Virus record (IMG/VR): IMGVR_UViG_3300027111_000003
From: a virus
Strand: one strand, 5' to 3'
Length of the DNA: 42,874 bases
Of the stretch, positions 1-42,650 are shown piece by piece. Numbering within the stretch: position 1 is the stretch's first letter; every line of letters starts with the position of its first letter. A program made the position numbers and the translations under genes. Below the pieces are notes generated by a model. That model saw only the letters and a list, made by a program, of their open reading frames with translations, did no database searches and was not told the origin of the DNA.

Positions 1-46
1 GATTTAGGTTCTTCCGTGTTTTCTCTCCGGTAAAGAAGACAATAAA

Positions 47-79
47 CTCAAGGTCCTAGCAAACCTTGGGTTTTTCTTT
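47..79 (+). terminator. Intrinsic terminator upstream of the RNAP gene region
   Basis: Stem CTCAAGGT/ACCTTGGG (8 bp including one G-U) with an 8-nt loop, followed by TTTTTCTTT. It lies about 100 bp downstream of tRNA-Leu in the circular map. A duplicate copy sits at 42794-42826. Confidence 0.75.
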
Positions 80-83
80 GCCC

Positions 84-106
84 TAAATATCTTCTGTATC
101 GGAGAG
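84..106 (+). promoter_or_regulatory. Family-A-type 23-bp motif (variant): TAAATATCTTCTGTATC|GGAGAGA
   Basis: A/T-rich 5' end, a pyrimidine block and a GGAGAGA start region. The 11-mer TATCGGAGAGA recurs at 39492-39502. A degenerate second copy, CTGCGATAGCGGAG, lies at 108-121. Confidence 0.4.
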
Positions 107-147
107 ACTGCGATAGCGGAGTGCCACGTTTTCTGGAGGCTAATCAG

Positions 148-345
148 ATGGAAATAAAGGATATTCTTGCGATAATCGGAACGGTGGCGATTTGGTTCGT
201 TGTGACAATGGCACTCCTCGGGATGACCCTGGTGCCTCTGTCCCTTTTCCTGGAGCAGCAGTGGGAACTGTATCTCCAGCGCCGAAAGGATCGCAAGCGG
301 AGAGAACGAGCAGAACGTAACGCGCTGAAAAAGCTGGAGAATTGA
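148..345 (+). CDS. Small membrane protein with basic C-terminal helix (hypothetical)
   Basis: ATG at 148 is preceded by GGAGG with 7-nt spacing. There is one clear hydrophobic span (ILAIIGTVAIWFVVTMALLGMTLVPLSLFL) and then a K/R/E-rich tail. The track ORF 121..345 uses an upstream non-ATG start. Confidence 0.5.
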   Translation: MEIKDILAIIGTVAIWFVVTMALLGMTLVPLSLFLEQQWELYLQRRKDRKRRERAERNALKKLEN

Positions 346-368
346 GAAGATCGCTCCGCTAACGGAGG

Positions 369-391
369 AATTACCCCTCCATACAGCACAT
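369..391 (+). promoter_or_regulatory. Family-B phage promoter candidate B1 (AATTACCCCTCCATACA|G)
   Basis: The 18-bp stretch 369-386 is identical to 12606-12623. It has T3/T7-group architecture and lies 33 nt upstream of the RNAP ATG. Confidence 0.6.
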
Positions 392-423
392 TCGAACAAC
401 CTTCGAGCAACGATGAGGCTTGA

Positions 424-2913
424 ATGATTACCGAAGACCTATACCAGACCGAGCTTGCCCTTGAGGAAGAAGCTCGGGGCCTGACGATCCAGCGGTTCCA
501 CAGAGAGCATCTCAAGGGAACCTTAGAGGAAACCTTCAGTGAGACCTTTCTTGGTTCTCATCTAATCGGAAACTACCTAGTCCCTTACACTCAGGGCATC
601 TCTGAGTGGCTAAGGGCCTCCAATTCAGGCAAGGCAGGAAGGCGTAGTAGAGCTGCTGTCTTGATCGAACACGTCGATCCGGCGCTCCTCGCCTTCCTGA
701 TGCTGAAAGCCATCCTCAACAAGGTGGGTGTCTACCACGAGGGCAAGTCTTGCTCGTTCACCGGCCTAGCCATCTACGGCGCGGGTCTGGTGCACGACGA
801 GCTCCGCCTCCGGGAGTTCGACGCCGAACACGCCAAGTTGTCTAAGCGCATCCACGCCGACTTCGCCAGCCGCGAGCTGACCAGGTCGAAGCGTGAGGAG
901 TACATGCAGAAGGTCTTCGAGAAGCACGACATGGAATGGTCGGTGTGGACGAAGACCGAGATGGTGCAAGTAGGCACGGCGCTCCTGGATGTCTTCCGGG
1001 CCGTCACGGGTGACATCGAGATCATCACCGAGGGAAGCGGCAAGGGGAAGCGGGACGTCGTCCAGCCCTCCCTCGGCCTCCTCCAGGCGGTCGAGATGAC
1101 CTCGGATCACTGCGAGGCTCTCTTCACCACCTACTTCCCGACCGTCATACCGCCCCGTCCGTGGTCGGTGGACACCCTGGAGACCGGAGGCTACCACAGC
1201 CACCACGTCACCCCGTATCCGCTCGTGAAGGCGTCCAAGAAGGCGTACCGCACGATCCTCCGGGATGCCGTGGAAGCCGGAAAGGTGTCTCGGGTCCTCC
1301 AGGCCGTGAATGGCCTCCAGGACACCCGGTGGTGCATCAATGTCCGAGCTCTGGACGCCATCGAGGCTGTCTACGAGCGCAACATCCCTTGCGGCAAGCT
1401 CCCCCGAGCCGACCGGAAGATACCCGACCCGCCGCCGAAGTCGCTGGAGGGCCTGGACATTGACCACCCTGACGTGAAAGCCTACCGCGTATACTGCTTC
1501 GGCGTTCATGAGAACAACCGGCGCATCATTGGCAAGCGCGTCATGGCGCAGCGAGCCTTCCACCTGGCCCGTAAGTTCTCTCAGTTCGAGGCCATCTACT
1601 TTCCACATGACCTCGACAGCCGGGGCAGGGCTTATCCCAAGCCGTCCGGCCTTAACCCTCAAGGACCCGATTATGTCAAAGGCATCCTTCAGTTTGCGGA
1701 GGCCAAAAGTCTCGGGCAAAGCGGCCTCTTCTGGCTGGGAGTGCACGGAGCTAACTGTTATGGGGAGGACAAGCTACCTCTGGACCAACGCTCGACTTGG
1801 GCGCGAGATAATTTGGAGCTCGCCCGACGTGTGGCCCGGAACCCACTGCAAGAACTCTCATGGACTCGATGTGATAACCCTGTCCAGTTCCTCGCGTGGT
1901 GCTTCGAGTGGGCAGAAGCCCATTCCCTCCAAGACCCGACCACGTACCGGTCGCGACTCCATGTAGACCTCGATGCAACCTGCTCCGGCCTCCAGCACTT
2001 CTCGGCTATGCTCCGGGACAAGGTTGGCGGCTTCCACGTCAACATGACGCCCAACGATGTCCGCCAGGATGTCTACGGGGCCGTCGCCAAGGAAGCGATC
2101 AAGCTGATCGATGCTGACGAGGACGAGGAGAAGGTAACCCTCGCCGACGCCTGGAGAACCTTCGGGATGACCCGGAGCACGACCAAGCGATCGGTGATGG
2201 TCAAGCCCTATGCTGGCACCCGCCAGTCTTGCACGAACTATGTCTCCGAAGCCGTCGAGGACGCCCTGAAAGATGGCGTAGCCCTCCCGGTTCCCCGAGA
2301 GCTCATGTGGGAGTTCAAGATGTACGGGGCCGACAAGGTGTGGAAGGCAATCCCAAAGGTTGTCGTCGCCGCAGACGGGGCCATGCAATGGCTCATGGCG
2401 ATCTCACGCCTGGTCGGTAGGTCACAGCCTAGCCAACGCCGGATCGAATGGGTGACCCCCCTGGGGCTCCCGGTGCACCAGTACAAGTTCGACACCCGGT
2501 CCCGCAGGGTCGAGACGTTCTTTGATGGCGCTCGCATCCAGCCCCGGATCACCGAGGACCTCGATAGCCTCGATCCGAGACAGATGGCTACCTCGGTGGC
2601 CCCCTCGTTCGTCCACTCGCTCGACGCTTGCCACCTCCAGGCAACCCTGAGTGCCGCTATGGACGATGGCATGACCTACTTCGCGGCTGTCCACGATAGC
2701 TTCGGGGTCCATGCTGCCGATGTCGAAAGGTTCACCAGGATCATCCGAGAGCAATTCGTTCAGATGTACGAGGAGCACGACGTCCTGGCCGAGTTCCTGG
2801 AGACAGCCTCGCCGTTGATCCTGCCGGAACTTCGGGAGGAAATCCCGACGTTACCCCCTAAGGGCTCCCTGGACCTCCGGGGCATCCTTGAAAATCAGTT
2901 CTTCTTTTCCTGA
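424..2913 (+). CDS. T7-family single-subunit DNA-dependent RNA polymerase
   Basis: 829-aa ORF. Catalytic motifs are visible in the translation (DLDATCSGLQHF, AAVHDSFGVH), as is a specificity-loop region (GARIQPRI) and a C-terminal FFFS foot comparable to T7 FAFA. Confidence 0.97.
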   Translation: MITEDLYQTELALEEEARGLTIQRFHREHLKGTLEETFSETFLGSHLIGNYLVPYTQGISEWLRASNSGKAGRRSRAAVLIEHVDPALLAFLMLKAILNKVGVYHEGKSCSFTGLAIYGAGLVHDELRLREFDAEHAKLSKRIHADFASRELTRSKREEYMQKVFEKHDMEWSVWTKTEMVQVGTALLDVFRAVTGDIEIITEGSGKGKRDVVQPSLGLLQAVEMTSDHCEALFTTYFPTVIPPRPWSVDTLETGGYHSHHVTPYPLVKASKKAYRTILRDAVEAGKVSRVLQAVNGLQDTRWCINVRALDAIEAVYERNIPCGKLPRADRKIPDPPPKSLEGLDIDHPDVKAYRVYCFGVHENNRRIIGKRVMAQRAFHLARKFSQFEAIYFPHDLDSRGRAYPKPSGLNPQGPDYVKGILQFAEAKSLGQSGLFWLGVHGANCYGEDKLPLDQRSTWARDNLELARRVARNPLQELSWTRCDNPVQFLAWCFEWAEAHSLQDPTTYRSRLHVDLDATCSGLQHFSAMLRDKVGGFHVNMTPNDVRQDVYGAVAKEAIKLIDADEDEEKVTLADAWRTFGMTRSTTKRSVMVKPYAGTRQSCTNYVSEAVEDALKDGVALPVPRELMWEFKMYGADKVWKAIPKVVVAADGAMQWLMAISRLVGRSQPSQRRIEWVTPLGLPVHQYKFDTRSRRVETFFDGARIQPRITEDLDSLDPRQMATSVAPSFVHSLDACHLQATLSAAMDDGMTYFAAVHDSFGVHAADVERFTRIIREQFVQMYEEHDVLAEFLETASPLILPELREEIPTLPPKGSLDLRGILENQFFFS

Positions 2914-2914
2914 A

Positions 2915-2937
2915 ACAATCTCTACGATAACGGAGAT
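2915..2937 (+). promoter_or_regulatory. Family-A 23-bp motif (ACAATCTCTACGATAAC|GGAGAT)
   Basis: Conserved core CGATAACGGAGA. It lies immediately after the RNAP stop, and its GGAG doubles as the Shine-Dalgarno for the ATG at 2943. Confidence 0.5.
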
Positions 2938-2942
2938 AAAGT

Positions 2943-3302
2943 ATGACCACCTTCAAGCCAGGTGATAAGGTTCGCGTGAACCCCACGCAGGAAAATATCA
3001 CGTACTTTCGGGCCAACGCTCCCGGAGTGAGTATACAAGACCCCTTCACGGTAAAAGAACAGAGAGGGTACCTTTTATCATGCGAGGAACTTGCGCAGAG
3101 ACACTACGCTGACAGGTTCTATCTCGTCTCACCACCGGTCGCTGAGAAACCCCGCCAGCTCCTCACGGTTCTCCAGATGGATCGGGCTATCGCCGCCGCT
3201 GGCGGGACCCCGAGTGTCCTCGAAGAGTACCTCGATCGGCCACTCTCGGACTTCATCCAGAACGTCATGGCCCCGAACAGTCTCACCCTCAAGTACAAAT
3301 AA
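2943..3302 (+). CDS. Hypothetical protein
   Basis: 119-aa ORF whose ATG lies 7 nt after GGAG. Coding-like composition; no recognisable motif. Confidence 0.7.
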   Translation: MTTFKPGDKVRVNPTQENITYFRANAPGVSIQDPFTVKEQRGYLLSCEELAQRHYADRFYLVSPPVAEKPRQLLTVLQMDRAIAAAGGTPSVLEEYLDRPLSDFIQNVMAPNSLTLKYK

Positions 3303-3309
3303 CGGGAGA
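3287..3309 (+). promoter_or_regulatory. Degenerate family-A motif (AAATAACGGGAGA)
   Basis: ATAACGGGAGA overlaps the stop of the preceding ORF and supplies the SD for the ATG at 3318. It carries one extra G relative to the core. Confidence 0.3.
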
Positions 3310-3317
3310 CCACGCAG

Positions 3318-3803
3318 ATGCGTGCTTTGATCCTGGCGGCACTCTCCGCCCTGGTAATGACAGCATACGCATACGCAGCCCCTATACCGCCGACCTACAC
3401 GATCTCCGAGGATTTCGGAGGCCGCCTGGACGAATACGAGCACAAGTACAACCGGTGGTCCCGCGAGGGTGCCAAGGTGATCCTCGACGGCATCTGCGGG
3501 AGCGCCTGTACGGTGGTCCTCAGTACCAAGTACAACCTGGATGTCTGTGCGACGGACAGGGCCGAGGTCCTCTTCCACATGCCCTTCATGCTCGACAAGC
3601 ACATGAAGCTCGTGGACACCCCGTACAACCGGGCACTCGCGATGGTGATCTGGCACGACCATTTCCTGCGGGTCCTCCCGCCCAAGATGGCGGCTGTACT
3701 GGAGAAGAAAAAGATACCGAGCGTCTACGAAGGCGCTGAGTACAACGAGATGATCGGATGGAAAGCCCCCGATCTTTTCAAACACGTCAAACCCTGTAAC
3801 TAA
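3318..3803 (+). CDS. Secreted/periplasmic protein with cleavable signal peptide (hypothetical)
   Basis: 161 aa. The N-terminus MRALILAALSALVMTAYAYA|AP is a typical Sec signal. The mature part contains G-x-C-G-SAC and several Cys. It weakly resembles ClpP/SppA-fold periplasmic protein families, from memory only. Confidence 0.75.
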   Translation: MRALILAALSALVMTAYAYAAPIPPTYTISEDFGGRLDEYEHKYNRWSREGAKVILDGICGSACTVVLSTKYNLDVCATDRAEVLFHMPFMLDKHMKLVDTPYNRALAMVIWHDHFLRVLPPKMAAVLEKKKIPSVYEGAEYNEMIGWKAPDLFKHVKPCN

Positions 3804-3823
3804 TTCTCTACGATAACGGAGAA
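3801..3823 (+). promoter_or_regulatory. Family-A 23-bp motif (TAATTCTCTACGATAAC|GGAGAA)
   Basis: Exact core CTCTACGATAACGGAGA as at 2920-2936. It overlaps the upstream stop codon and provides the SD for the ATG at 3830. Confidence 0.5.
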
Positions 3824-3829
3824 ATAACC

Positions 3830-4033
3830 ATGTTCAGCCCGACTACCTCGTCTGCCCTCAAGGACCTCACGAAGTCCCTCGCGAAACTTCGCGCCGCCGC
3901 TTCCGCCGCCAACCGCCGCAAGGAAGCCGCCGATCGTCTTATCTGCGACCTCGTCGCCAAGTCCGAAGCCGAGAAGGCCGAGGTCGACCACGCCCTCCGC
4001 GTGGCTAGTAAGCTGTCCGATCTCCTCGCCTGA
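3830..4033 (+). CDS. Hypothetical Ala-rich helical protein
   Basis: 67-aa ORF directly downstream of a family-A motif/SD. Composition looks like a coiled coil. Confidence 0.6.
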   Translation: MFSPTTSSALKDLTKSLAKLRAAASAANRRKEAADRLICDLVAKSEAEKAEVDHALRVASKLSDLLA

Positions 4034-4057: not shown

Positions 4058-4080
4058 CTAATCCCTCCGATAACGAAGGA
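4058..4080 (+). promoter_or_regulatory. Family-A 23-bp motif variant (CTAATCCCTCCGATAAC|GAAGGA)
   Basis: TAAT + CCCTCC + GATAAC architecture, sequence-wise intermediate between families A and B. AAGGA serves as the SD for the ATG at 4087. Confidence 0.45.
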
Positions 4081-4086
4081 AATTCA

Positions 4087-4317
4087 ATGACCCCGACTGC
4101 ACAGATGAAAGCCATCCGCTCGAACACCCGCTACGTGGAGGCTTCCGTCCACTACAACCGCCGCAAGTTTGACAAGAAATACGAGGTTGTCGCTCGCCTC
4201 TACGACGACGCCCTCGAAGACCTCGGCGTTGCCATCGGCGGGGAAGTTGTCCTCGACGTCCGCGAAGACCGCCACGACGCCCTCGAAAGCGTCCGCTTCT
4301 TCCGTAACCAGGGCTGA
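4087..4317 (+). CDS. Hypothetical protein
   Basis: 76-aa ORF with an SD 7 nt upstream. Confidence 0.65.
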   Translation: MTPTAQMKAIRSNTRYVEASVHYNRRKFDKKYEVVARLYDDALEDLGVAIGGEVVLDVREDRHDALESVRFFRNQG

Positions 4318-8389: not shown

Positions 8390-8759
8390 AACTGACGCGG
8401 TCTTCCACCGCGCCGAGCGGTTGACCCTCGAAGCAACCGCCGAACCCAAACTGCTCCCCCAATACCAAGACGCAATGAAACAAGCCCGAGCCCTTGAAGG
8501 TGCTCCGGGATGGAAAGGAAAAACACGCATGACCCAGGTAGAGAAAATCCTCAATCACATCCAGAAGAACGGCTCGATCACGCAGCGTGAAGCGTACCTC
8601 GACTACAGCATCCAGAGCTTCCACCGCCGCCTCTCGGACATCCGCGAGATGGGCATCAAGTTGCTCCCGGTGACCAAGGTCCATCCGACTACCGGACAGG
8701 AATACACGCGCTACTACCTCGCTGGCTCCAAGGCCAACCAGAAGCCGATCGCCGCGTGA
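8349..8759 (+). CDS. Winged-helix DNA-binding protein (HTH_39-like); start uncertain
   Basis: The C-terminal segment ILNHIQKNGSITQREAYLDYSIQSFHRRLSDIREMGIKL...YTRYYL looks like a phage winged-helix domain. Alternative in-frame ATGs at 8475 and 8529. Confidence 0.55.
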   Translation: MISWMKTHSSDTDETDAVFHRAERLTLEATAEPKLLPQYQDAMKQARALEGAPGWKGKTRMTQVEKILNHIQKNGSITQREAYLDYSIQSFHRRLSDIREMGIKLLPVTKVHPTTGQEYTRYYLAGSKANQKPIAA

Positions 8760-9110: not shown

Positions 9111-11006
9111 TTGAAAACTTTGATATTTGACATCGAGACCGATGGGTTCCTCGAAACGATGACCCGCGTCCACTCGCTTGTCATCAAGGACCCGGACACT
9201 GGAGACCTTACCTCCTGTGCCGCCGACTACGCCATAGACGGTAGGGCTGTTGAGGACGGACTTCACCGCCTCATGGAAGCTGATCGGATCGTCGGCCACA
9301 ACATCATCAAGTTCGACCTCCCGGCGATCCAGAAGGTTTACCCCTGGTTCACCTATGACCCCTCGAAGGTCTTCGACACCCTCGTCGCCTCGCGCCTCAT
9401 CTGGACACAGATCGTGGACACCGACATGGGCAAGATCAGGGCAGGGACCACCACCCTCCCACCGAAGCTCGCCGGTCGCCACGGCCTGGAAGCCTGGGGC
9501 CACCGCCTCGGGAACTGGAAGGGCGACTACGCGAAGATGATGGAAGACCAGGGCCTCGACCCCTGGGCCGCCTGGTCGCAAGACATGCAGGACTACTGCG
9601 AGCAGGACGTCGAGGTAAACGCCCAGCTCTACCAGCTCATCCTAGACAAGAACTACTCCGAGCAAGCCCTTGAAATTGAACGACGTATCGCGTTCATCAT
9701 GGCTGAGATGGAGCGGACAGGCTTCGGCTTTGACGTCGAGAACGCCGAGAAACTCTATGTCAAGCTCGCCGGTAAACGTGAGGAGCTCTCCCAGGAACTC
9801 CGCAACCTCTTCCAGCCCTGGTTCGTCAAGGACGGGCCGATAAAGGAGCCCAAGAAACCCCTGGCTCGCCTCGGGTACTGGGGCCACAAGAACGACGACG
9901 GCTCCTGGACAGGCTACCCCTTCCAGAAGGTCAAGCTCACTGTCTTCAATCCAAACTCACGAGACCACATAGCCGACCGCCTCATGCGGGTTCGCGGCTG
10001 GAAGCCTACCGAGATGACCCCCGGTGGCAAGCCCAAAGTGGACGAAGATGTCCTCGCTGGTCTCAAGTACCCCGAAGCCCAAGCCCTGACCGACTTCATG
10101 ACGCTCCAGAAGCGTATCGGCCAGTTAGCGGAGGGCGACAACGCCTGGATCAAGCTGGTCAAGGCGAACGGGCGCATCCACGGCTCGATCAACCCAAACG
10201 GGGCGGTCACCGGGAGAGCAACTCACAACACTCCGAATATCGCCCAGGTTCCTAAGGTCGGGACCCTCTACGGGGCCGAGTGCCGTGCCCTGTTCCTCGC
10301 CAAGATGAAGGGCCGGGTGCAGCTCGGCTGCGACGTCTCTGGTCTCGAACTGCGAATGCTTGGTCATTTCATGGCGAAGCACGACGGCGGGGCCTATGGC
10401 CGCGAGGTGATCGAGGGAGACATCCACACGATCAACCAGACAGCCGCAGGGCTCCCCACGCGAGACGATGCCAAGACCTTCATCTACGCCTTCCTATACG
10501 GGGCGGGGGACGGAAAGATTGGCTCGATCATCGGCAAGGGACGCAACGCGGGACGGCTCATAAAGAAGAAGTTCTTTGAGAAGGTCCCCGCTCTGGCGAA
10601 ACTCGTGGAGGGTGTCAAGGCCGCCGCAAACAGCAAGGGTTACCTGAAGGGCCTCGACGGTCGCCTCCTGCACATCCGCTCGGACCACGCTGCGCTCAAC
10701 ACGCTGTTGCAGTCGGCAGGGGCCATCGTGTGCAAGCAGTGGATCATAGAATTCTACGATCTCCTGTCCGAACACGGGCTGCACGACAAGGTTGCTATCG
10801 TGGCATGGGTACATGATGAGTTGCAAATGGAAGTCGATCGGTCGCTCCTCCGGGAGGAACTGAACGACAAAGGCGAGACGGTCATCAAGTCGCTCGTCGG
10901 TGATCTGTGCATCCAAGCGATTGAACGCGCAGGAAATAAACTCGGCATCCGTGTGCCGCTCACTGGTGAATACAAGACTGGAAAGAACTGGAAGGACTGC
11001 CACTGA
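9111..11006 (+). CDS. Family A DNA polymerase (T7 gp5-like)
   Basis: 631 aa. Has Exo I DIETDG and pol motifs CDVSGLELRML, RDDAKTFIYAFLYGAG and WVHDELQ. Only a TTG start (9111) precedes the conserved DIETD. Confidence 0.95.
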   Translation: MKTLIFDIETDGFLETMTRVHSLVIKDPDTGDLTSCAADYAIDGRAVEDGLHRLMEADRIVGHNIIKFDLPAIQKVYPWFTYDPSKVFDTLVASRLIWTQIVDTDMGKIRAGTTTLPPKLAGRHGLEAWGHRLGNWKGDYAKMMEDQGLDPWAAWSQDMQDYCEQDVEVNAQLYQLILDKNYSEQALEIERRIAFIMAEMERTGFGFDVENAEKLYVKLAGKREELSQELRNLFQPWFVKDGPIKEPKKPLARLGYWGHKNDDGSWTGYPFQKVKLTVFNPNSRDHIADRLMRVRGWKPTEMTPGGKPKVDEDVLAGLKYPEAQALTDFMTLQKRIGQLAEGDNAWIKLVKANGRIHGSINPNGAVTGRATHNTPNIAQVPKVGTLYGAECRALFLAKMKGRVQLGCDVSGLELRMLGHFMAKHDGGAYGREVIEGDIHTINQTAAGLPTRDDAKTFIYAFLYGAGDGKIGSIIGKGRNAGRLIKKKFFEKVPALAKLVEGVKAAANSKGYLKGLDGRLLHIRSDHAALNTLLQSAGAIVCKQWIIEFYDLLSEHGLHDKVAIVAWVHDELQMEVDRSLLREELNDKGETVIKSLVGDLCIQAIERAGNKLGIRVPLTGEYKTGKNWKDCH

Positions 11007-11539: not shown

Positions 11540-12329
11540 CGGCGACATGCTCGTCCACCGGTCCACTGTGGCCGTCGAAAAAGACACCCGGTTCCTCGAC
11601 CGATACCACATCCTGTTTTCGGACGCCGAGAGCGCCTGGAATGTCCTCATGGAAACCCTGGGGGAACTCCAGGACTCCTCGGGCACCTCCGAGGTCCTCG
11701 TCGCCTTCTCTGACCCGGAAGAGAACTTCCGCAAGGGCCTCGTCGGCGGGGACTACAAGTCTCACCGGGCCGGTTCGCGCAAGCCGCTGGCCTACTGGGA
11801 AACCCGGAGGCGGGTCGAGGAGGGCTTCTCCACGATCTGCTATCCGACCTTGGAGGCCGACGACGTGATGGGTGTCCTCATGACCGAGCACCCCGGCGAT
11901 TTCGTCCTCTGGTCCCTCGACAAGGACTTGAAGCAAATCCCCGGTTACCACCTGGTGGACGACGAGGTCATCAAGCGGCCCCTCTCCGAGTGTGACCTCT
12001 TCTTCTACCTCCAGACGCTCGCTGGCGATGTCACCGATGGGTACACCGGGTGCCCGGGCATCGGCAAGGACCGGGCCGAGAAGTACCTCCGGGAGAACCT
12101 CCGGGTTACCCCGGTGAGCCATGAGCTCAAAAGCGGCCCCCGCAAGGGCCAAGTCGAAACGCGATGGGACGAGGGGCTCGCCTCCTCTCCCTGGGATACC
12201 GTGGTGTCCCTATACCAAAAGGCCGGTCTCGGGGAGGAGGACGCGCTCCTCAACGCCCGGATGGCTCGCATTCTTCGCACAGAAGACTACGTGAATGGAG
12301 AAATCGTCCTTTGGACCCCCAACGCATAA
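11520..12329 (+). CDS. 5'-3' exonuclease (T7 gp6-like, FEN/PIN fold)
   Basis: 269 aa. Has N-terminal LLIDGDMLVH and acidic clusters (EADDVMG, SLDKDL). TTG start, because no ATG precedes the conserved N-terminus. Confidence 0.88.
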   Translation: MKTLLIDGDMLVHRSTVAVEKDTRFLDRYHILFSDAESAWNVLMETLGELQDSSGTSEVLVAFSDPEENFRKGLVGGDYKSHRAGSRKPLAYWETRRRVEEGFSTICYPTLEADDVMGVLMTEHPGDFVLWSLDKDLKQIPGYHLVDDEVIKRPLSECDLFFYLQTLAGDVTDGYTGCPGIGKDRAEKYLRENLRVTPVSHELKSGPRKGQVETRWDEGLASSPWDTVVSLYQKAGLGEEDALLNARMARILRTEDYVNGEIVLWTPNA

Positions 12330-12547
12330 CCTCGGACGGCGGATCGTCCAGCTACTATATCCTCCCAGAAGGGGCCAAGGAATTAGGAGACCTCATCGAG
12401 TTCAAAGAAATGGACTTCAATCTCGGTAACATCTTCAAGGCTTGTTACCGACTGGGTGAGAAGAATGACCCGCTGTACGAGATCAACAAGATGGAGTGGT
12501 TCGTCGCCAGACTAAAGGCGCACTACCTCCGAAAGACACAAAAGTAA
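12311..12547 (+). CDS. DUF3310-like protein
   Basis: GSSSYYILPEGAKELGDLIEF...FNLGNIFKACYRLGEK...KMEWFVARLKAHY matches my memory of DUF3310. No ATG is available upstream of the conserved part. TTG at 12311 lies 10 nt after GGAG. Confidence 0.6.
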   Translation: MDPQRITSDGGSSSYYILPEGAKELGDLIEFKEMDFNLGNIFKACYRLGEKNDPLYEINKMEWFVARLKAHYLRKTQK

Positions 12548-12560
12548 CTATCGACACATA

Positions 12561-12587
12561 GAGGGTTCCTTCGGGGACCCTCTTTTT
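12561..12587 (+). terminator. Strong hairpin terminator at the end of the DNA-metabolism block
   Basis: 9-bp stem GAGGGTTCC/GGGGACCCTC with a UUCG tetraloop, followed by TTTTT. Confidence 0.85.
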
Positions 12588-12605
12588 GTTTGTCAAGTAC
12601 AAAAT

Positions 12606-12628
12606 AATTACCCCTCCATACAGAGAGA
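12606..12628 (+). promoter_or_regulatory. Family-B phage promoter candidate B2 (AATTACCCCTCCATACA|GAGAGA)
   Basis: Identical to the T3 consensus AATTAACCCTCACTAAAGGGAGA at 18 of 23 positions. It lies immediately after the terminator and ahead of the structural block. Confidence 0.65.
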
Positions 12629-12639
12629 CACGTAAAGAA

Positions 12640-12822
12640 ATGACGCAAGTTTTTCCTAGTGACGCTAGTTACCCTTCAGTAACCCCTCAACTTATAGAAC
12701 ACCTTTGTAATAAATACCCATTAGAGGGTTTTAAGAATATTCGTTCAGAAGGTGAACTAAAGACATACCAAGGTGCACAAGAGGTCATTGACTACTTGAA
12801 GACACTGCTCGCCCGACAGTAA
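12640..12822 (+). CDS. Hypothetical protein in a low-GC islet
   Basis: 60 aa from the ATG at 12640. The track ORF starts at a TTG inside the terminator T-run. The local A+T-rich composition differs from the flanks. Confidence 0.5.
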   Translation: MTQVFPSDASYPSVTPQLIEHLCNKYPLEGFKNIRSEGELKTYQGAQEVIDYLKTLLARQ

Positions 12823-12831
12823 GGAAAGCCG

Positions 12832-18821: not shown

Positions 18822-18830
18822 CACTCCATA

Positions 18831-18861
18831 GGGAGGTCCTTAATTGGGCCTCCCTTTTTTT
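18831..18861 (+). terminator. Terminator after the capsid gene (T-phi analogue)
   Basis: 9-bp stem GGGAGGTCC/GGGCCTCCC with a 6-nt loop, followed by TTTTTTT. Confidence 0.85.
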
Positions 18862-33163: not shown

Positions 33164-33200
33164 GACAAGGAAAGGGGAGACAAAAGTGAAGACAAGTCTG

Positions 33201-33230
33201 TTGACTTCTTCTACTCTTCTGTGCTACCCT
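33201..33230 (+). promoter_or_regulatory. Host-type promoter candidate P1 (TTGACT-N18-TACCCT)
   Basis: CTGTTGACTTC is shared with P2. First of three TTGACTTC elements. Confidence 0.4.
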
Positions 33231-33347
33231 ATCTAACTTAAAGATAACTTAGAGACATCCTAGGTTATCTTAGGTTTATTACTAGTTAGATAAGAGTAGT
33301 ATAATATCTTAGGTTACCCCAGAGGTTCCCCCGGAGATAACTTAGAG
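33211..33347. repeat. A+T-rich repeat cluster (interrupted inverted repeat and ATCTTAGGTT / GATAACTTAGAG direct repeats)
   Basis: CTACTCTT...ATCTAACT (33211-38) pairs with AGTTAGATAAGAGTAG (33284-99). ATCTTAGGTT occurs at 33267-76 and 33306-15. GATAACTTAGAG occurs at 33243-54 and 33336-47. Confidence 0.85.
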
Positions 33348-33441
33348 TGAACCACGAGTTCCCTCCGGGTTCCTCCGACGGGCTTCCTACTACTCTCTCC
33401 CATACTTGGTTTGATGTATCGATTTACTTTCCCCCAGAGAG

Positions 33442-33470
33442 CCCTCAGGAGTCCCTCAGGGACCCTCTGG
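33442..33470. repeat. Three helically phased copies of CCCTCAGG/CCCTCTGG (10-11 bp spacing)
   Basis: Copies at 33442-49, 33453-60 and 33463-70. This is the reverse complement of the motif in the array at 33850-33941. Confidence 0.85.
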
Positions 33471-33849
33471 GCTACCACCGTAGCCGAGCACCCCCAGAAC
33501 GCTCTCCACGGGCTCCTGTGGGCGATTACGGGGCACATGGAGGTGCACCCGAGGGTTACCCGGGGGAACCCCGCGACCTTTTTCTGAAAAATCTGCATCC
33601 CTGTATCATATATACCCACAACCTACAATCCCCCCGTGGCCCCCTGTAGAGCAACCTGGAGTGCCCTATACGGCACGACCAACCGGCACAGTCTCCACTA
33701 AGTGATTGATTTCATTAGGGTACACATTAGATGTAGTATCGGTTAGGGCCGACGAGGGCGGGGATAACCCCAGGTTTCCCGGGGTTTCCAGCCTTCTATG
33801 TCTATACATATTCAAGCCTCCGTGTCCCCTCCCACATTTTTTCCCTCCA

Positions 33850-33941
33850 GGGCAACCTGAGGGCACCCCGAGGGCAACCGAGAGTCCACCGCTCCCATGT
33901 CATCCGGTTCCCTCCAGGGTCACCGAGGGGTCACCGAGGGG
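33850..33941. repeat. Five 11-bp tandem units GGGYMMCCNGA (3 + 2 copies)
   Basis: GGGCAACCTGA, GGGCACCCCGA and GGGCAACCGAG at 33850-82. GGGTCACCGAG occurs twice at 33917-38. Confidence 0.85.
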
Positions 33942-34112
33942 ACTAACTATCTATCACGTTATGTTACACTCTGTAACAATTCACCTCGTAAAGCTGCTGG
34001 ATAGCAGCGTACATCCAACCAAGCATATATAGCACACGCGCATAACGCACGGTTCCAATCCTATACCGATGGCCCCTCAGCGCAGCCGCTCAAACTTTCT
34101 TCGATAAGCCTG

Positions 34113-34141
34113 TTGACTTCGATAACGGAGATATGCTTATC
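34113..34141 (+). promoter_or_regulatory. Host-type promoter candidate P2 fused to a family-A core (TTGACTTCGATAACGGAGA)
   Basis: The -35 hexamer TTGACT is directly followed by CGATAACGGAGA. A possible -10 (GCTTAT/CTTATC) lies 16-17 nt downstream. Confidence 0.45.
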
Positions 34142-34350
34142 TGTAGTCACGGTGATCGAAAGAGAAACCGGGCAGAGGTCCTCCGGGGTCTCTGAGTTCT
34201 TCGAAATCGATAGATGGTCTCTTTGAGTTACCTCAAGGTCTCCACCGGTTCACTGGGTCTCAACCGCTCAACCTGCTACGGCAAACAGAGTACTGAGAAG
34301 CTGGAAAACACGGCAGGACAACAAACCAAGAGAAAGCCTCAAAATAGGGA

Positions 34351-34378
34351 TTGACTTCGATAACGAAGCGAATACAGT
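34351..34378 (+). promoter_or_regulatory. Host-type promoter candidate P3 (TTGACT-N16-TACAGT) fused to a family-A-like core
   Basis: TTGACTTCGATAACGAAG followed by TACAGT. It has the same -10 flavour as the regulator promoter at 39906. Confidence 0.5.
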
Positions 34379-34707
34379 TAGACACAACAGAGCGGCGGCG
34401 GCAGAGCGCTAAAGCGGATCGGATGGAAACTCCGAGTGTTCTTTGAAAATCAAATAGGGAAGTGTGGACATGTCCAAAGCACGTAGTGCGGAGGGGCGGC
34501 CTGGTAAACCGCAACGGGAAACCGTGTGTCCACTACGATAACCCACGAAATGGCTCCCGCGTCCAAAGCGTCGGAGTAAGTGCAGTGCATACTAGCCACG
34601 GGTCTTAGGTCCATACTAAGTGTCCCGTGTTTCCATTACCTTCGATTGTCTTAGCCAACCGCAGCATTTGCGGTTCGTTAAAGCAATCCAACCGGGGAGC
34701 ACCTCAA

Positions 34708-34995
34708 ATGACCGTCACAATCAAAACCGATAACAAATGGAAAGACTTCAAGTACGCCAACGAGGTTCCGGCAAAGGTCCTCGCGTCACAGTTCGACCAC
34801 CTGGAGGACGAAACTGATGGTTTCATCCTATACCGTGGCCGCTGGTATCACCTTTCGGACTTCATGCGCGTTCCTGAAGGGGCGGAGGACTTGAAGGGCT
34901 GGCATGGTTACGCCGGTGATAGTTTCTTTAGTGGCGTCCTCATCAAAGTGAGCCGCGACGGCGAGCAATATATGATTGCCACGCATTTGTCCTAA
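34708..34995 (+). CDS. Early protein, hypothetical
   Basis: 95 aa from the ATG at 34708, 8 nt after GGGGAG. The track ORF starts upstream at a non-ATG codon. First gene downstream of P1-P3. Confidence 0.65.
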   Translation: MTVTIKTDNKWKDFKYANEVPAKVLASQFDHLEDETDGFILYRGRWYHLSDFMRVPEGAEDLKGWHGYAGDSFFSGVLIKVSRDGEQYMIATHLS

Positions 34996-35014
34996 TCTCT
35001 GCGATAACGGAGAG
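34992..35014 (+). promoter_or_regulatory. Family-A 23-bp motif (CTAATCTCTGCGATAAC|GGAGAG)
   Basis: Overlaps the upstream stop codon. Its downstream sequence GAGAGACACG is shared with family-B copy B2. Confidence 0.5.
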
Positions 35015-35026
35015 AGACACGCGATC

Positions 35027-35119
35027 ATGTCCACCTTCATTCCCCTCGCAAGTATCACCGCGATTACCCTCGCGGTTCTCCTCTCGGTTGGCGCGTTGGT
35101 ATTCTATGCCGATCGGTAA
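35027..35119 (+). CDS. 30-aa hydrophobic micro-protein (candidate)
   Basis: MSTFIPLASITAITLAVLLSVGALVFYADR. A single TM-like span, starting 13 nt after the family-A motif. Below the ORF-track size cut-off. Confidence 0.4.
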   Translation: MSTFIPLASITAITLAVLLSVGALVFYADR

Positions 35120-35147
35120 AGCACTCAAATCCCTGGAGATAACTCAG

Positions 35148-35480
35148 ATGGACATCGATTTTAGCACGGCAACTGCCATCGGCATCATTAACCGATCAAT
35201 CCTTATGCATCCGTCTCTTTTCAGGGATGCCGTGATGTCCCGCTATCAGGAGGACATTGGCTATGCGTCCAAGTCCGAAGGCCGCACCCGTCAAGCCGTT
35301 CTCGCAAGTGCCGACGCATCCCTTCGAGGATATAACATCGTGGCGGAGGGATACCAGATCGATGCAATCGACATGGCTTCCGGTATCATCCTGCTTAACA
35401 TCGCGTGTAAGCTCCAATGCATCCCAGCGTATGTCAGGACGGCAGCAGCCCTCCGCACTTGGCCGGGCGACGACGTCTAA
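35148..35480 (+). CDS. Early protein, hypothetical
   Basis: 110 aa from the ATG at 35148, 8 nt after GGAGA. The track ORF starts at 35088 with a non-ATG codon. Confidence 0.55.
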   Translation: MDIDFSTATAIGIINRSILMHPSLFRDAVMSRYQEDIGYASKSEGRTRQAVLASADASLRGYNIVAEGYQIDAIDMASGIILLNIACKLQCIPAYVRTAAALRTWPGDDV

Positions 35481-35500
35481 TTCCCTGCGATAACGTAGAG
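35478..35500 (+). promoter_or_regulatory. Family-A 23-bp motif variant (TAATTCCCTGCGATAAC|GTAGAG)
   Basis: Overlaps the stop at 35478-80 and is followed by a structured leader. Confidence 0.45.
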
Positions 35501-35581
35501 ATAACCTGTACCGATTGTCTTATCGGCCCCTCGGGTAACCCCTGAGGCGCCCATTAAGTTAATCCAACGGGAGCAACGATC

Positions 35582-35743
35582 ATGCCGCTTCACCTTCTGT
35601 ATGCCGAGGAAGAACTTGTCGCCAAATGGCAGCGCCATGCCGCCTACTTCTATGCGCAGTGGAAGGCGTGGGGCGACCGCGACCACCTCGCAGCGTATCG
35701 CCGGTATTCCCAGATGGCCCTGAAGGTCCTCACCGAGTGCTAG
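35582..35743 (+). CDS. 53-aa helical early protein (candidate)
   Basis: ATG is 7 nt after GGGAG. MPLHLLYAEEELVAKWQRHAAYFYAQWKAWGDRDHLAAYRRYSQMALKVLTEC. Not in the track (under 60 aa). Confidence 0.45.
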   Translation: MPLHLLYAEEELVAKWQRHAAYFYAQWKAWGDRDHLAAYRRYSQMALKVLTEC

Positions 35744-35816
35744 TGCGATTGTCTCTGATACACCTCGCGTGTCTCCTGGTGTTAACCATCGGGTTTCTCG
35801 CGGGTGAAACTGTGTT

Positions 35817-35839
35817 CTAATCTCTCCGATTGTGAAGGG
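35817..35839 (+). promoter_or_regulatory. Degenerate family-A motif (CTAATCTCTCCGATTGTGAAGGG)
   Basis: The upstream half is identical to family A; the downstream half has diverged. Confidence 0.3.
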
Positions 35840-35849
35840 AACCTATACC

Positions 35850-36341: not shown

Positions 36342-36361
36342 CCGAGGAGAGGTGTGTCCGA

Positions 36362-36550
36362 ATGCCTACGATAACGGAGACAACAGGTCTCACCACAGAA
36401 GCCCTCGAAGCTGTCATCGAGGAGCTCCGCGCCAACGATAGTCCCCTGGTGCCTGGGATAACCGTGAGTAACCAGCGGCGGATACCCGTTGTGGACTTCT
36501 ATTTCCCAAGGCTGTGGGGGGGCCCACCCCGACCTCCTCGTTGTCGATGA
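36362..36550 (+). CDS. Short ORF, possibly the true N-terminus of the following large protein (frame change at a G7 run)
   Basis: Strong SD (GAGGAGAGG) 9 nt upstream of the ATG at 36362. The ORF overlaps the +1 frame ORF, which is open from 36489. G7 lies at 36516-36522. Confidence 0.35.
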   Translation: MPTITETTGLTTEALEAVIEELRANDSPLVPGITVSNQRRIPVVDFYFPRLWGGPPRPPRCR

Positions 36551-36584
36551 CATCGAGGTCCTCGGCCTCCGGGAGGTGTCCCAG

Positions 36585-39965: not shown

Positions 39966-40343
39966 ATGGGGACCGAGAGAGACACGATTGGGCGGTTAAT
40001 TAACGCCTTGCGACTGTTCAACAGGATGGACACAAAGATGCAGGTGTCTACCATCCTTACCTTCTTAGAAGTTGCAGCCGCAGACCTGGACAAGCGAGAC
40101 CTTTCAATGAGGGAACTGGAAAAACGCATCGGGTTCACCTCGGGGGTCGCCTCCAGGAACGCCTACTACTGGGGCGAGGGTACAAAGGAAATGCGCGGAG
40201 GTCGGCAGTTGATCGACGTGCGAATGAGTCGTCAAGACCACCGACTGAGAGATTTGGTTCTAACCAACAAGGGAAGGGCCTTCCTCCACACTCTGATAGG
40301 AGAGGACAATGGCGCGGCAACGCGGGAAGAAGTACCAGGCTGA
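39966..40343 (+). CDS. MarR-type winged-helix transcriptional regulator (candidate lysogeny repressor)
   Basis: 125 aa. LSMRELEKRIGFTSGVASRNAYYW ... DHRLRDLVLTNKGRAFL fits the MarR wHTH-plus-wing pattern. It overlaps the integrase start by 35 nt. Confidence 0.65.
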   Translation: MGTERDTIGRLINALRLFNRMDTKMQVSTILTFLEVAAADLDKRDLSMRELEKRIGFTSGVASRNAYYWGEGTKEMRGGRQLIDVRMSRQDHRLRDLVLTNKGRAFLHTLIGEDNGAATREEVPG

Positions 40344-41277
40344 CGTCGTAATCGACGGGGTTCGTAAGCGCCCCACCTTTGCGACGTTGGCAGAAGCAGA
40401 AGCCTATGAACGGGCTATTGCAAACGGGCTCCCCGCCGCCGGGGTGTCTACCTTCAAGAAGTTCCACGAGACCCACTTCGAGTTCATCTGGGGCGACAAC
40501 AATGCCCCCGAGGCAACTCAGTTCAACCTGGGCTCCCTGGACAAGTTCATTCCAGCCGACAAGCCGATCGCCGAGATCACCGCCCCTTACATCATCGACC
40601 TCGTGTCGCGGATGAAGAAAACGGGTATCTCCAATGCGACGATCAATCGCCGCTTATCGGCCTTGTCGAAACTCCTGAAACACGCGGAGAAACTCGAACT
40701 CACCCGGAAGCCCCCGATAGGTTTCCTGCGGGAGAACGAGGGGCGCGACCGCGTCCTATCCCGTGTCGAGGAGCAGAAGATGTTCCAGTTCTTCGACCAC
40801 ATGGGGATGACCCTCTCGGGGGCCATCGTGCGGTTCCTCCTGTACACCGGGTGTCGCCTCGGGGAGGTCTTCACGCTCGACCGGGACCGAGTGAGCGACG
40901 GACGGGTGACCTTCCACTACACCGTTACCAAGACGAGCAAGACGCGGCTGGTGCCCCTGATAGGCCCCGCGAAGGACGCCTGGACCCGCGTGTGCGGCAT
41001 GACGAACAACCCGTATCCCTTCGCGGAGATGCCGAGGGATACTTTCAGGGACCACTGGAACCGCTTCCGGGAGCACATGGATGCCCTGGACGATCCCCAG
41101 TTCGTCCCTCACATGCTGCGGCACACATGCGCCTCGCGGCTTGTCTCGAAGGGCGTCCCGTTGCCCCAGGTCATGCTGTGGATGGGACACCGGAATATTC
41201 AAACGACCATGCGGTATTCCCATCTGGCCCCGAAGGACCTCGATGGTGCCGCAAAGGCGCTCCTGGAGGATGCGTGA
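40309..41277 (+). CDS. int: Tyrosine recombinase / phage integrase
   Basis: 322 aa. Has Arg I (YTGCRLGE), H-x-x-R (HMLRHTCASRL) and a catalytic Tyr context (GHRNIQTTMRYSHL). Confidence 0.95.
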   Translation: MARQRGKKYQADVVIDGVRKRPTFATLAEAEAYERAIANGLPAAGVSTFKKFHETHFEFIWGDNNAPEATQFNLGSLDKFIPADKPIAEITAPYIIDLVSRMKKTGISNATINRRLSALSKLLKHAEKLELTRKPPIGFLRENEGRDRVLSRVEEQKMFQFFDHMGMTLSGAIVRFLLYTGCRLGEVFTLDRDRVSDGRVTFHYTVTKTSKTRLVPLIGPAKDAWTRVCGMTNNPYPFAEMPRDTFRDHWNRFREHMDALDDPQFVPHMLRHTCASRLVSKGVPLPQVMLWMGHRNIQTTMRYSHLAPKDLDGAAKALLEDA

Positions 41278-42565: not shown

Positions 42566-42650
42566 GCGGGTGTGGCGGAATTGGCAGACGCACTTGGTTT
42601 AGGTCCAAGCGCCGCAAGGCGTGGGGGTTCAAGTCCCTCCATCCGCACCA
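42566..42650 (+). tRNA. tRNA-Leu (anticodon UAG), type II with long variable arm, CCA encoded
   Basis: Manual cloverleaf. Acceptor stem GCGGGTG/CATCCGC. Anticodon stem CTTGG/CCAAG with loop TTTAGGT. Variable arm GCC-GCAA-GGC. T arm GGGGG-TTCAAGT-CCCTC. A73 followed by CCA. Confidence 0.9.

Follow-up and report, generated by a model that had tools for sequence, protein, structure and literature searches.

The DNA analyzed here (hereafter, the window) is a stretch of 42,874 nucleotides from a temperate, T7-like, integrating phage of Rhizobiales bacteria. It consists of a circular assembly of 42,747 bp plus an assembler overlap of 127 bp. Positions 1-127 are an exact duplicate of 42748-42874, so the terminator and the palindromic motifs near the start of the window are physically single and lie about 145 nt 3' of the tRNA-Leu gene carried by the phage. 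A true direct terminal repeat of 127 bp was considered and rejected: other assemblers returned the same phage at 42,777 and 42,887 bp, that is, the 42,747-bp unit plus k-1 (k = 31 and k = 141, respectively), which identifies the repeat as an assembler overlap. The first base of the window coincides exactly with the att core; presumably, this is a branch point of the assembly graph, at which free and integrated forms of the phage coexist. The region of interest extends from this core to the start codon of a single-subunit, T7-type RNA polymerase (RNAP). Its features, and those elsewhere in the window that bear on their interpretation, are collected in Table 1.

Table 1. Coordinates of genes, predicted control elements and attachment-site features in the window; scores in bits refer to the D1 weight matrix described in the text.
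Feature	Position	Strand	Remarks
att core GATTTAGGTTCT	1..12 (= 42748-42759 physically)	+	matches anticodon loop of host tRNA-Leu(UAG)
O0 CTCTCCGGTAAAGAAGAC, degenerate D1 member	23..40	.	14.3 bits; aligned orthologues CCCTACGATAACGACGAC (L081), CTCAACGTAAACGAAGCC (L088)
Putative intrinsic terminator, 11-pair hairpin then T-run	44..79	+	kept with compensatory changes
O1 ATCTTCTGTATCGGAGAG, decayed D1-like site	89..106	.	10.9 bits; A-like motif 84-106 of the original prediction
O2 GACTGCGATAGCGGAGTG, D1 site	106..123	.	16.2 bits, above 20/20 shuffles; second copy of the original prediction
Small membrane-protein gene, 65 aa, basic C-terminal tail	148..345	+	GGAGG ribosome-binding site 135-139
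O3 CGCTCCGCTAACGGAGGA, D1-like site touching -17 of PB1	352..369	.	13.4 bits
PB1, AATTACCCCTCCATACAG, -17 to +1	369..386	+	predicted phage-polymerase promoter; B1 of the original prediction
Single-subunit T7-type RNAP gene, 829 aa	424..2913	+	phrog_414, E = 4e-224
Strong D1 between RNAP stop codon and next gene	2920..2937	+	25.1 bits
Strong D1 before gene 3830-4033	3806..3823	+	25.1 bits
Strong D1 before gene 4087-4317	4063..4080	+	22.8 bits
Predicted strong intrinsic terminator, end of PB1 unit (RNAP and replication genes)	12560..12590	+	UUCG loop
PB2, predicted late-class promoter, initiating GAGAGAC, before structural genes	12606..12623	+	without D1 site
Early host-type promoter candidate, TTGACT then D1 in spacer	34113..34132	+	24.5 bits
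Early sigma-70-like promoter TTGACT-N16-TACAGT, D1 in spacer	34351..34378	+	promoter scan; D1 22.6 bits
MarR-like winged-helix regulator gene, overlaps integrase gene	39966..40343	+	phrog_9665, E = 6e-14
Tyrosine integrase gene	40309..41277	+	phrog_1, E = 1e-58; PF00589 on source contigs
Phage complete tRNA-Leu(UAG)	42566..42650	+	98 nt 5' of att core

The polymerase, which is preceded by a GAGG ribosome-binding site at 415-418, matches T7 RNAP structures with E = 2e-110. The small gene upstream of it proved to be a real reading frame. It has a ribosome-binding site; comparison with a near-identical copy in a prophage shows five synonymous codon changes and one non-synonymous change; and homologous small proteins are found at the same position in relatives. 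The N-terminal part of its product is hydrophobic. Near the other end of the window, the regulator gene overlaps the gene of the tyrosine integrase, and this pair follows the early genes and precedes the RNAP gene on the circular map. The regulator has a DxRx5LTxxG wing motif and a recognition helix that is conserved in relatives. About 45 of its top 50 Foldseek matches belong to the MarR family, at weak E values of 0.16 to 2 and for a model with a pLDDT of 63.6, while the Pfam search with this protein gave no match. It should be noted that a PDB sequence search with the regulator returned pentatricopeptide-repeat matches that were spurious, containing zero significant stretches, and these were discarded. 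The protein is a candidate repressor for the palindromic sites described below, with a weak assignment to the MarR family. A scan of IMG/VR with the regulator for more relatives found none.

The integration target is the host tRNA-Leu(UAG). Identity to three attL contigs (L001, L081, and L088) starts at window position 1, and identity to an attR contig (L085) stops at 42759; joining the two junction halves rebuilds a host tRNA that is recognized as tRNA-Leu(tag), 85 nt long. The arrangement differs from a classical tRNA-restoring attachment site in that just 12 bp are shared, and the tRNA search at the junctions detected none at attL and none formed at attR. In place of restoration, the phage supplies a complete tRNA-Leu(UAG) of its own, which agrees with the reconstructed host tRNA at 68 of 85 positions; tRNA was also the sole match of an Rfam scan of the whole window. 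GTGCCA-type repeats resembling integrase arm sites lie on both sides of the core, at 42659-42695 and 120-126.

The first line of evidence on the control of the RNAP gene is the repetition of the motif immediately before it. The original prediction had placed a T3-like motif, B1, at 369-391; this motif is present, and the window contains two exact copies of the initial 18 nt, AATTACCCCTCCATACAG, at 369 (PB1) and at 12606 (PB2), with 0.01 copies expected. No further phage promoter above chance was found in the window. Eight more copies of the motif occur at equivalent places in three relatives; the motif precedes both the RNAP gene and the structural genes in L081 (three copies) and in L088 (two copies; this relative was obtained by a metagenome scan). 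Orthologues of PB2 are found at 22242 in L081, at 14215 in L088, and in L223. The motif has a three-part layout, AATTA-CCCCT-CCA-TACA-G, with an A/T-rich segment at -17..-13, a specificity segment at -12..-8, a TAnA element, and a purine at +1. The promoters of T3, T7 and K11 have the same three-part outline, and their specificity changes reside at -12..-10 and in the specificity loop of the polymerase. B1 agrees at 14 of 18 positions with the T3 promoter consensus.

The second line of evidence is the joint change of promoter and polymerase in one relative, L002. All three of its promoter copies read ATTAGGGC, with CCC replaced by GGG at -12..-10, a replacement found only in this phage; its specificity loop reads ASRQVKTFFDGSMIQPR, as opposed to RSRRVETFFDGARIQPR. 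Radical loop changes at the equivalents of T7 residues 744, 749, 755, and 756 are likewise confined to L002; among them, the R at 744 has become A, the E at 749 K, and the R at 756 M. Because L002 is a single lineage, this co-variation counts as one event. Scanning IMG/VR for the GGG variant added the late promoter of L002 and four unrelated chance matches, and the scan with the promoter pattern for more relatives gave 46 loci, of which the real ones were two already-known contigs. The exact copy at 12606, the occurrence of the same motif at the same places in relatives, and the joint change of promoter and loop in L002 make B1 very probably the cognate promoter of the phage polymerase, and the polymerase gene can, in that case, drive its own transcription. 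By analogy with T7 and T3, transcription from PB1 would start at G386 and leave a leader of 37 nt before the RNAP ATG.

PB1 could also be a plain middle-operon promoter, perhaps a replication-origin promoter like phi1.1A/B of T7, with the level of RNAP set by the host and with feedback and bistability of no importance. PB1 is indeed the sole phage promoter for the 12 kb of replication genes that extend to the terminator at 12560, and the additional early-class promoter found right after the RNAP region in L081 and L002 suggests that this class serves mainly the middle genes. However, the promoter is kept 5', not 3', of the RNAP gene in all four phages in which the region is visible, a promoter of the PB1 type invariably has a D1 site beside it, experimental mapping in phage LUZ100 showed the same placement, and any PB1 transcript necessarily contains the RNAP reading frame. 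We therefore deem a role confined to the middle operon unlikely. A milder variant, in which PB1 exists mainly for the replication genes and the polymerase transcribes its own gene incidentally, may apply.

The palindromic sites near PB1 belong to a family, here termed D1, that is defined by the imperfect palindrome CTnCG-WTAA-CGnAG. A weight matrix trained only on relatives finds nine D1 sites above 22 bits in the window; the same matrix reached 12.8-15.3 bits in 20 shuffles. O0 to O3 are four candidate sites flanking the promoter that precedes the RNAP gene, and three of these four score under the top shuffle value. Two of them had been listed in the original prediction as a promoter-like motif, A, at 84-106 and its degenerate second copy at 108-121. 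The ranking is the reverse: O2, the second copy, scores 16.2 bits and agrees with 13 of the 14 bases of the family core, whereas O1, the first, is within chance at 10.9 bits, below the range of the shuffles. O1 does align with strong palindromes in two relatives, the perfect TCTACGTTAACGTAGA of L081 and TCTACGTTAGCGTAGA of L088. The other two family-like sites, O0 and O3, had been overlooked.

Elsewhere, D1 sites are found in the spacers of TTGACT...CTAGAT-type promoters, and the TTGACT-D1 arrangement recurs in L169, L170, and L171. The D1 core ends 5-6 nt before the ATTA of the promoter in six of six early-class phage promoters from four phages, and D1 is missing from four late phage promoters. 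Conservation of the sites is palindromic as far as T(-10)/A(+10). This symmetry and the placement at promoters, together with the regulator gene beside the integrase, suggest that the D1 sites are probably operators for the MarR-like regulator. Separately, D1 was considered as a sigma-70 promoter in itself and rejected, manual inspection of the sites showing no consistent -35 element at the right spacing.

A purely symmetric operator does not explain two further properties of D1, namely its orientation (22 sites read ATAA and 2 read TTAT) and the several sites that double as ribosome-binding sites, as does the GGAGA of the site at 2920 for the gene that follows RNAP. D1 might instead act in RNA, either as a hairpin hiding a ribosome-binding site or as a site for a translational repressor or processing nuclease, and not as a DNA operator. 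Such a role would account for the bias toward the transcribed strand and for the right half, CGGAGA, which serves three genes as Shine-Dalgarno sequence, 6-7 nt ahead of their start codons; several copies are also able to form hairpins of 5-6 bp. On the other hand, the variable positions of the putative stem show no co-variation (P = 0.06-0.75), with non-pairing A/G and C/A combinations common; D1 also occurs in promoter spacers and 5' of phage promoter starts, outside the transcript of the promoter concerned, and no Rfam family matches it. An exclusive action of D1 in RNA is, in our opinion, distinctly unlikely, and operators bound by the regulator remain the preferred reading.

Upstream of O1, the original prediction had recognized an intrinsic terminator at 47-79. 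The element is there, as a hairpin at 44-73 with 11 pairs, four of them G-C, followed by TTCTTTG; its folding energy is -12.9 kcal/mol (z = -2.8). The terminator-like pattern by itself occurs at chance level, with 3 sites in 3.5 kb against 2.6 expected. The element shows zero differences from the prophage copy L001, and hairpin and T-run are both retained in the two diverged prophages, L088 and L081, the latter from Rhizobiales isolate AFS086343; 4 of the 11 stem pairs have changed on both sides, and the T-run is present throughout, in three sequences in all. A hairpin with a U-run whose pairing is kept by compensatory changes points to an intrinsic terminator. Its strength is probably moderate, since the stem has only four G-C pairs; the stem is A/U-rich. 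In the attL of L001, L081, and L088, the 5' half of the host tRNA-Leu points toward the RNAP gene, and the hairpin is the first feature past the 12-bp core. Thus, the terminator is placed where the host tRNA promoter would run into the polymerase gene, and the idea that it shields this gene from read-through fits the arrangement.

The hairpin could, alternatively, be an element of the attP arm that binds or bends for recombination proteins. It does lie within that arm, 32 nt from the core (counting from the final base of the core to position 44, where the stem begins), and the arm-like GTGCCA repeats occur on both flanks of the core. What is conserved, however, is the pairing and the T-run, not the sequence; a terminator is annotated at the equivalent place in Rhizobium phage Pasto, and in LUZ100 a mapped terminator separates the lysogeny module from the RNAP gene. 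We consider a recombination element very improbable and retain the terminator.

Positive feedback on RNAP had been envisaged through B1 or through the A motifs. It is structurally possible through B1; the A motifs are not promoter-like. That the A motifs, and D1 in general, form a second promoter class for the phage polymerase, placing several cognate promoters before the RNAP gene, is scarcely credible: D1 has a superficially T7-promoter-like outline (TAAT...GGAGA) and is strongly oriented on the coding strand before many small genes, but it is conserved symmetrically, as an imperfect palindrome, shares no common sequence with the B promoter, abuts phage promoters, lies within TTGACT-type promoter spacers of the sigma-70 type, is missing from 30 kb of replication and structural genes, and is essentially unchanged in L002 despite the changed specificity loop and the change of all B promoters in that phage.

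No convincing sigma-70 promoter was found in the window between the terminator and the RNAP gene, and a sigma-70 scan of 1-3500 gave one chance-level site only, within the small gene. A -35-like hexamer reads TTGCCC here and TTGACA or GTGACA in relatives.

The sequence itself shows the elements, both attachment junctions, the two exact promoter copies, and the joint variation of promoter and specificity loop among phages; the functional assignments (start sites, terminator efficiency, identity of the repressor, feedback and bistable behavior) are inferred from it and would combine as follows. Integration would bring the promoter of the host tRNA-Leu, along with the 5' half of that tRNA, to a point 34 nt 5' of the terminator (from the last core base to 47, the first base of the terminator as originally delimited), and transcription would be stopped there in the prophage. 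A dimeric repressor, probably the MarR-like protein, would occupy the palindromes and keep the host-type early promoters and PB1 off. Upon infection or derepression, host polymerase would make a little RNAP, the first of it by read-through of the terminator or from a weak promoter at about 78-106. RNAP would then fire PB1, giving transcripts of its own gene and of replication genes spanning about 12 kb, as far as the terminator at 12560 (a stem of 10 pairs, a UUCG loop, and a T-run; folding z = -4.4), and the transcription of the RNAP gene from PB1 would close a positive feedback loop. RNAP would also fire PB2 and, through it, the late genes. We consider it reasonably probable that 1-423 combine the right attP arm with the control region of an operon of RNAP and middle genes, governed by such self-promotion and repression.

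A more far-reaching version holds out, in our estimate, only a slim chance of being correct. It would reduce the lysis-lysogeny decision to one autocatalytic RNAP node, insulated by the terminator from the strong promoter of the tRNA gene that integration has split, and held by a single repressor at -17, with D1 exerting dual control at DNA and RNA. The strict orientation of D1 is the reason for including control of translation at the RNA level; at the DNA level, D1 would provide operators or roadblocks. In this version, the repressor sites are the D1 sites dispersed over the early region, which downstream of the RNAP gene coincide in part with ribosome-binding sites. Its one-node part would extend the hypothesis formulated for LUZ100, while a dual role of D1 in DNA and RNA would be new.

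The contrast with T7 drawn in the original prediction, that T7 has no cognate promoter in front of gene 1, is sound only as regards the position directly before the gene and is otherwise overstated. T7 carries the cognate promoter phiOL at nt 405, upstream of the early region and at the left genome end; natural T7 is not known to have another one immediately in front of gene 1. An engineered T7 autogene, with the polymerase under its own promoter, reportedly shows autocatalytic expression and is reportedly tolerated only with lac repression and lysozyme. The polymerase of the present phage is only remotely related to T7 RNAP. Here, a natural T7-type polymerase gene appears to be placed on its own promoter, with known integration junctions, and to be controlled through a repressor site whose position is constant. 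The promoters with CCC and GGG at -12..-10, each with its own polymerase (82% identical), form a potential orthogonality pair, useful for learning how specificity-loop residues read the promoter and for synthetic circuits.

An RNAP gene behind a terminator, repressor-type sites and its own promoter would be self-amplifying and lockable, an arrangement proposed earlier for related temperate T7-like phages. The closest known system is Pseudomonas phage LUZ100 (Putzeys et al. 2023, PMC10134795), in which a phage-specific promoter was mapped upstream of RNAP by ONT-cappable-seq and a terminator was found after the integrase. According to the LUZ100 model, host read-through seeds RNAP, RNAP amplifies itself, and MarR represses the promoter (PMC10134795). 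PMC10134795 credits Boeckman et al. 2022 with the proposal, made for temperate T7-like phages, of MarR sites flanking the promoter that precedes RNAP. Both LUZ100 and the present phage are of the temperate T7-like type and encode a MarR-like regulator and integrase in one operon, a tRNA-Leu beside the integrase, a terminator between the lysogeny module and RNAP, and a promoter directly before RNAP. They differ in the class of their bacterial hosts and in the number of phage promoters (eight in LUZ100 and two here). The promoter was mapped by ONT-cappable-seq in LUZ100, whereas here it is deduced from repeats and co-variation; conversely, integration is documented here by junction contigs, whereas stable lysogens of LUZ100 were not obtained. 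Unlike LUZ100, the present phage has a small membrane-protein gene between terminator and promoter, and candidate operators at fixed spacing.

The same synteny is seen in Rhizobium phage Pasto (MT708545), with early genes that include a zinc peptidase, an HTH regulator overlapping the integrase gene and then, as here, tRNA-Leu, an annotated terminator, a membrane-protein gene, and the RNAP gene. For phages of the Pasto type, the same proposal of regulator sites flanking the promoter has been made (Boeckman et al. 2022, Virology 568:86, as reported in PMC10134795). The Pasto RNAP is 34.6% identical and its regulator about 25% identical to those described here; its tRNA is on the opposite strand, and its palindromes differ in sequence (GTCAC...GTGAC type). 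The order of integrase, tRNA-Leu(TAG) and RNAP is also the same in the HTVC019P-type pelagiphages HTVC011P and HTVC025P, which infect marine SAR11 hosts, as described in passages of Zhao et al. 2018 (preprint, 10.1101/410191). In HTVC025P, these passages state, the host tRNA is disrupted and unrestored, its function presumably being taken over by the phage tRNA; an analysis of promoters, terminators or operators is absent from them (10.1101/410191). The circuit of the LUZ100 type has thus been published before, and the proposal of MarR sites is a general one for temperate T7-like phages. The present phage is another case and overturns nothing known; it supports a logic of MarR-type repression, terminator and self-promotion that is shared by temperate T7-like phages of Pseudomonas, Rhizobiales, and SAR11.

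The T3-like motif upstream of the RNA polymerase (RNAP) gene (B1), which the original prediction held to be possibly read by the phage enzyme, is supported as a cognate phage promoter by an exact second copy, by copies at equivalent places in relatives, and by co-variation with the polymerase specificity loop in prophage L002. The window contains exactly two copies of AATTACCCCTCCATACAG: PB1 (369–386), which lies 37 nt upstream of the RNAP ATG, and PB2 (12606–12623), which lies in a non-coding gap directly past a strong terminator (12560–12590) and upstream of the structural genes; no further site of this type in the window scored above chance. The sequence agrees at 14 of 18 positions with the T3 consensus, and its outline is that of the T7 family. 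The copies in related prophages (three each in L081 and L002, two in L088) include two conserved classes: early promoters initiate with GCAC, and late promoters initiate with GAGAGAC and have an A/T-rich upstream block. In L002, ATTAGGGC replaces ATTACCCC in all three copies, and only there are R, E, and R changed to A, K, and M at the equivalents of T7 positions 744, 749, and 756, the loop being otherwise conserved. Such concerted change of every promoter and of the loop reading them is what would be expected of a polymerase-promoter pair, judging from the sequences of this single lineage. Transcripts from PB1 necessarily take in the RNAP gene and then about 12 kb of replication genes. The statement that T7 has no cognate promoter in front of gene 1 is correct for the region directly before that gene, but overlooks phiOL, a cognate promoter upstream of the early region. 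The third-position G+C content of the first ORF past the late promoter (12641–12823, 60 aa) is unusually low (~0.35 vs ~0.8 in its neighbors); this ORF is conserved in L081 and L088.

The family-A-like motifs (D1), also proposed as RNAP promoters, are not polymerase promoters, since D1 is an imperfect palindrome, (AWT)nnCTnCG-WTAA-CGnAGnn(AWT), occupies, in five phages, the spacer of host promoters of the TTGACT...CTAGAT type, ends 5–6 nt before the ATTA of all six early-class phage promoters while being absent from the four late ones, and is unchanged in L002. The AATTA behind the T3-like appearance of B1 is partly common to the outer arm of O3, the D1-like site (352–369) abutting PB1. The palindrome could also be read as an RNA stem; no co-variation between D1 variable positions was found, and T/A conservation is symmetric at plus and minus 10, a pattern that favors a dimeric DNA-binding protein over such a stem. 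A repeat finder returned eight D1 copies. A matrix trained on relatives only gave nine window sites above 22 bits (2920, 3806, 4063, and 34115–38201), i.e., in those parts of the early region that flank the lysogeny module; the replication and structural genes (30 kb) contain none. Within 1–423 there are four weaker sites (23–40, 89–106, 106–123, and 352–369), only 106–123 outscoring all shuffles.

The D1 orientation is strongly biased across phages (center ATAA 22 times vs TTAT twice); at several sites, GGAGA within D1 serves the next gene as its ribosome-binding site, and the right half-site is the ribosome-binding site for three genes past the RNAP gene. Neither feature is accounted for by a symmetric operator. 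In L081 (12858–12890) and L002 (3125–3160), the gene immediately following the RNAP gene is itself followed by an additional early-class promoter with abutting D1; no such promoter is present in the window, where the genes at that place differ.

The protein binding D1 is likely the 125-aa regulator whose gene overlaps the integrase gene. It has a PHROG 9665 match, a MarR-type wing motif, and a recognition helix conserved within the group; the evidence for the fold is weak. T7-like prophages of Mesorhizobium genomes (L172–L174) encode a regulator 56% identical to this one, the recognition helices being nearly the same. Their chromosomal integration site is a different one, adjoining a methyltransferase gene of the protein-L-isoaspartate O-methyltransferase family (PF01135), and they contain a few D1-like sites, one of them just upstream of the regulator gene.

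Features of the window and its relatives
Feature	Position	Remark
T7-type RNAP gene	424–2913	T7-like genes for replication, structure, and packaging come next
Regulator-integrase pair	39966–41277	
tRNA-Leu(UAG)	42566–42650	
att core	1–12 = 42748–42759	
D1 sites, orientation/ribosome-binding observation	2920–2937, 3806–3823, 4063–4080, 34997–35014, 35483–35500, 36364–36381	
L001, tRNA split	1–100	
L081, tRNA split	9545–9595	in Rhizobiales isolate AFS086343; RNAP identity 86%
L085, tRNA split	12258–12500	
L002/L171		RNAP identity 82%
L003/L169		RNAP identity 80%
L088		RNAP identity 76%

The near relatives are prophages; RNAP identity to the nearest cultured phages is at most 40%. In three contigs (L001, L081, and L088), the 5' half of a host tRNA-Leu(UAG) is joined to phage DNA exactly at position 1, the tRNA and RNAP gene reading in the same direction. 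A 94-kb contig, L085, retains window identity to 42759, beyond which come the 3' half of the tRNA and the genes for trigger factor and glycine cleavage. The att core is therefore the 12-bp GATTTAGGTTCT in the anticodon loop. When joined, the host halves give an 85-nt tRNA-Leu(tag) call, and no rebuilt tRNA was found at attL or attR. Thus, the prophage splits the host tRNA in its anticodon loop via only a 12-bp core, and the phage carries a complete tRNA-Leu(UAG) of its own, 80% identical to that of the host and 98 nt from the core. A preprint on pelagiphage HTVC025P (Zhao et al. 2018, 10.1101/410191) reports this strategy too, again with a trigger-factor gene as neighbor. GTGCCA repeats, three direct and one inverted upstream of the core (42659–42695) and one downstream (120–126), may be arm-type integrase sites; similar repeats lie by tRNA-Leu in phage Pasto (8288–8330 and about 8536–8561).

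Positions 1–127 exactly repeat 42748–42874. Other assemblies contain contigs of this phage of 42,777 and 42,887 bp, lengths equal to a 42,747-bp unit plus k-1. The assembly is thus circular and the repeat an assembler overlap, so that the terminator and D1 motifs physically follow the phage tRNA at a distance of ~145 nt. Both window and overlap start at the first att-core base, which suggests that the assembly graph branched there because the sample contained both free and integrated forms.

The anatomy agrees well with the proposal that the polymerase gene is shielded from the host tRNA promoter: a hairpin with T-run (44–73; dG -12.9 kcal/mol) is the first feature past the attL junction and is identical in prophage copy L001. 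The terminator pattern by itself is not above chance. The hairpin is kept in L081 and L088, where the flanking CUCA/UGGG and T-run are retained and the stem interior is altered yet paired, both sides having changed in 4 of 11 pairs. In the circular form, it would terminate the integrase and tRNA transcription unit. A strong hairpin with T-run (18830–18855) immediately follows the major capsid gene, the place occupied by the T-phi terminator in T7. The ~1.5-kb non-coding, repeat-rich region after the terminase gene (33164–34700; e.g., AGATAACTTAGAG, GGTTATCTTAGG, and runs of CCCTCAGGG-like units) probably includes the virion genome ends, with the early host-type promoters after them. The sole clear minus-strand gene (41641–41862), within the lysogeny module, encodes a 73-aa protein beginning with a lipoprotein-type signal, MRYAMIALAALVSLSGC, making it a candidate gene for lysogenic conversion or exclusion.

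In a lysogen, the terminator and repressor-occupied sites would hold the RNAP gene silent despite the adjoining tRNA promoter. A little host-made RNAP would ignite PB1, establishing positive feedback, and would activate the late genes from PB2. The first RNAP could be the product of a weak promoter or of read-through; at the position occupied by TTGACA or GTGACA in relatives, only TTGCCC is present in the window. We infer that such a circuit would be bistable.

This circuit is essentially that mapped or proposed for Pseudomonas phage LUZ100, with a phage-specific promoter upstream of the RNAP gene, a terminator past the integrase, a MarR-integrase operon, and a model of positive feedback plus MarR repression (PMC10134795); that the RNAP promoter might be flanked by MarR sites is an idea which the LUZ100 authors credit to Boeckman et al. 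2022 (PMC10134795). Pasto shares synteny with the window, including an annotated terminator and membrane-protein gene upstream of the RNAP gene. The window circuit is thus a well-supported further example of an already known type, to which it adds promoter/specificity-loop co-variation, documented junctions at both attL and attR, and candidate operators at fixed spacing.
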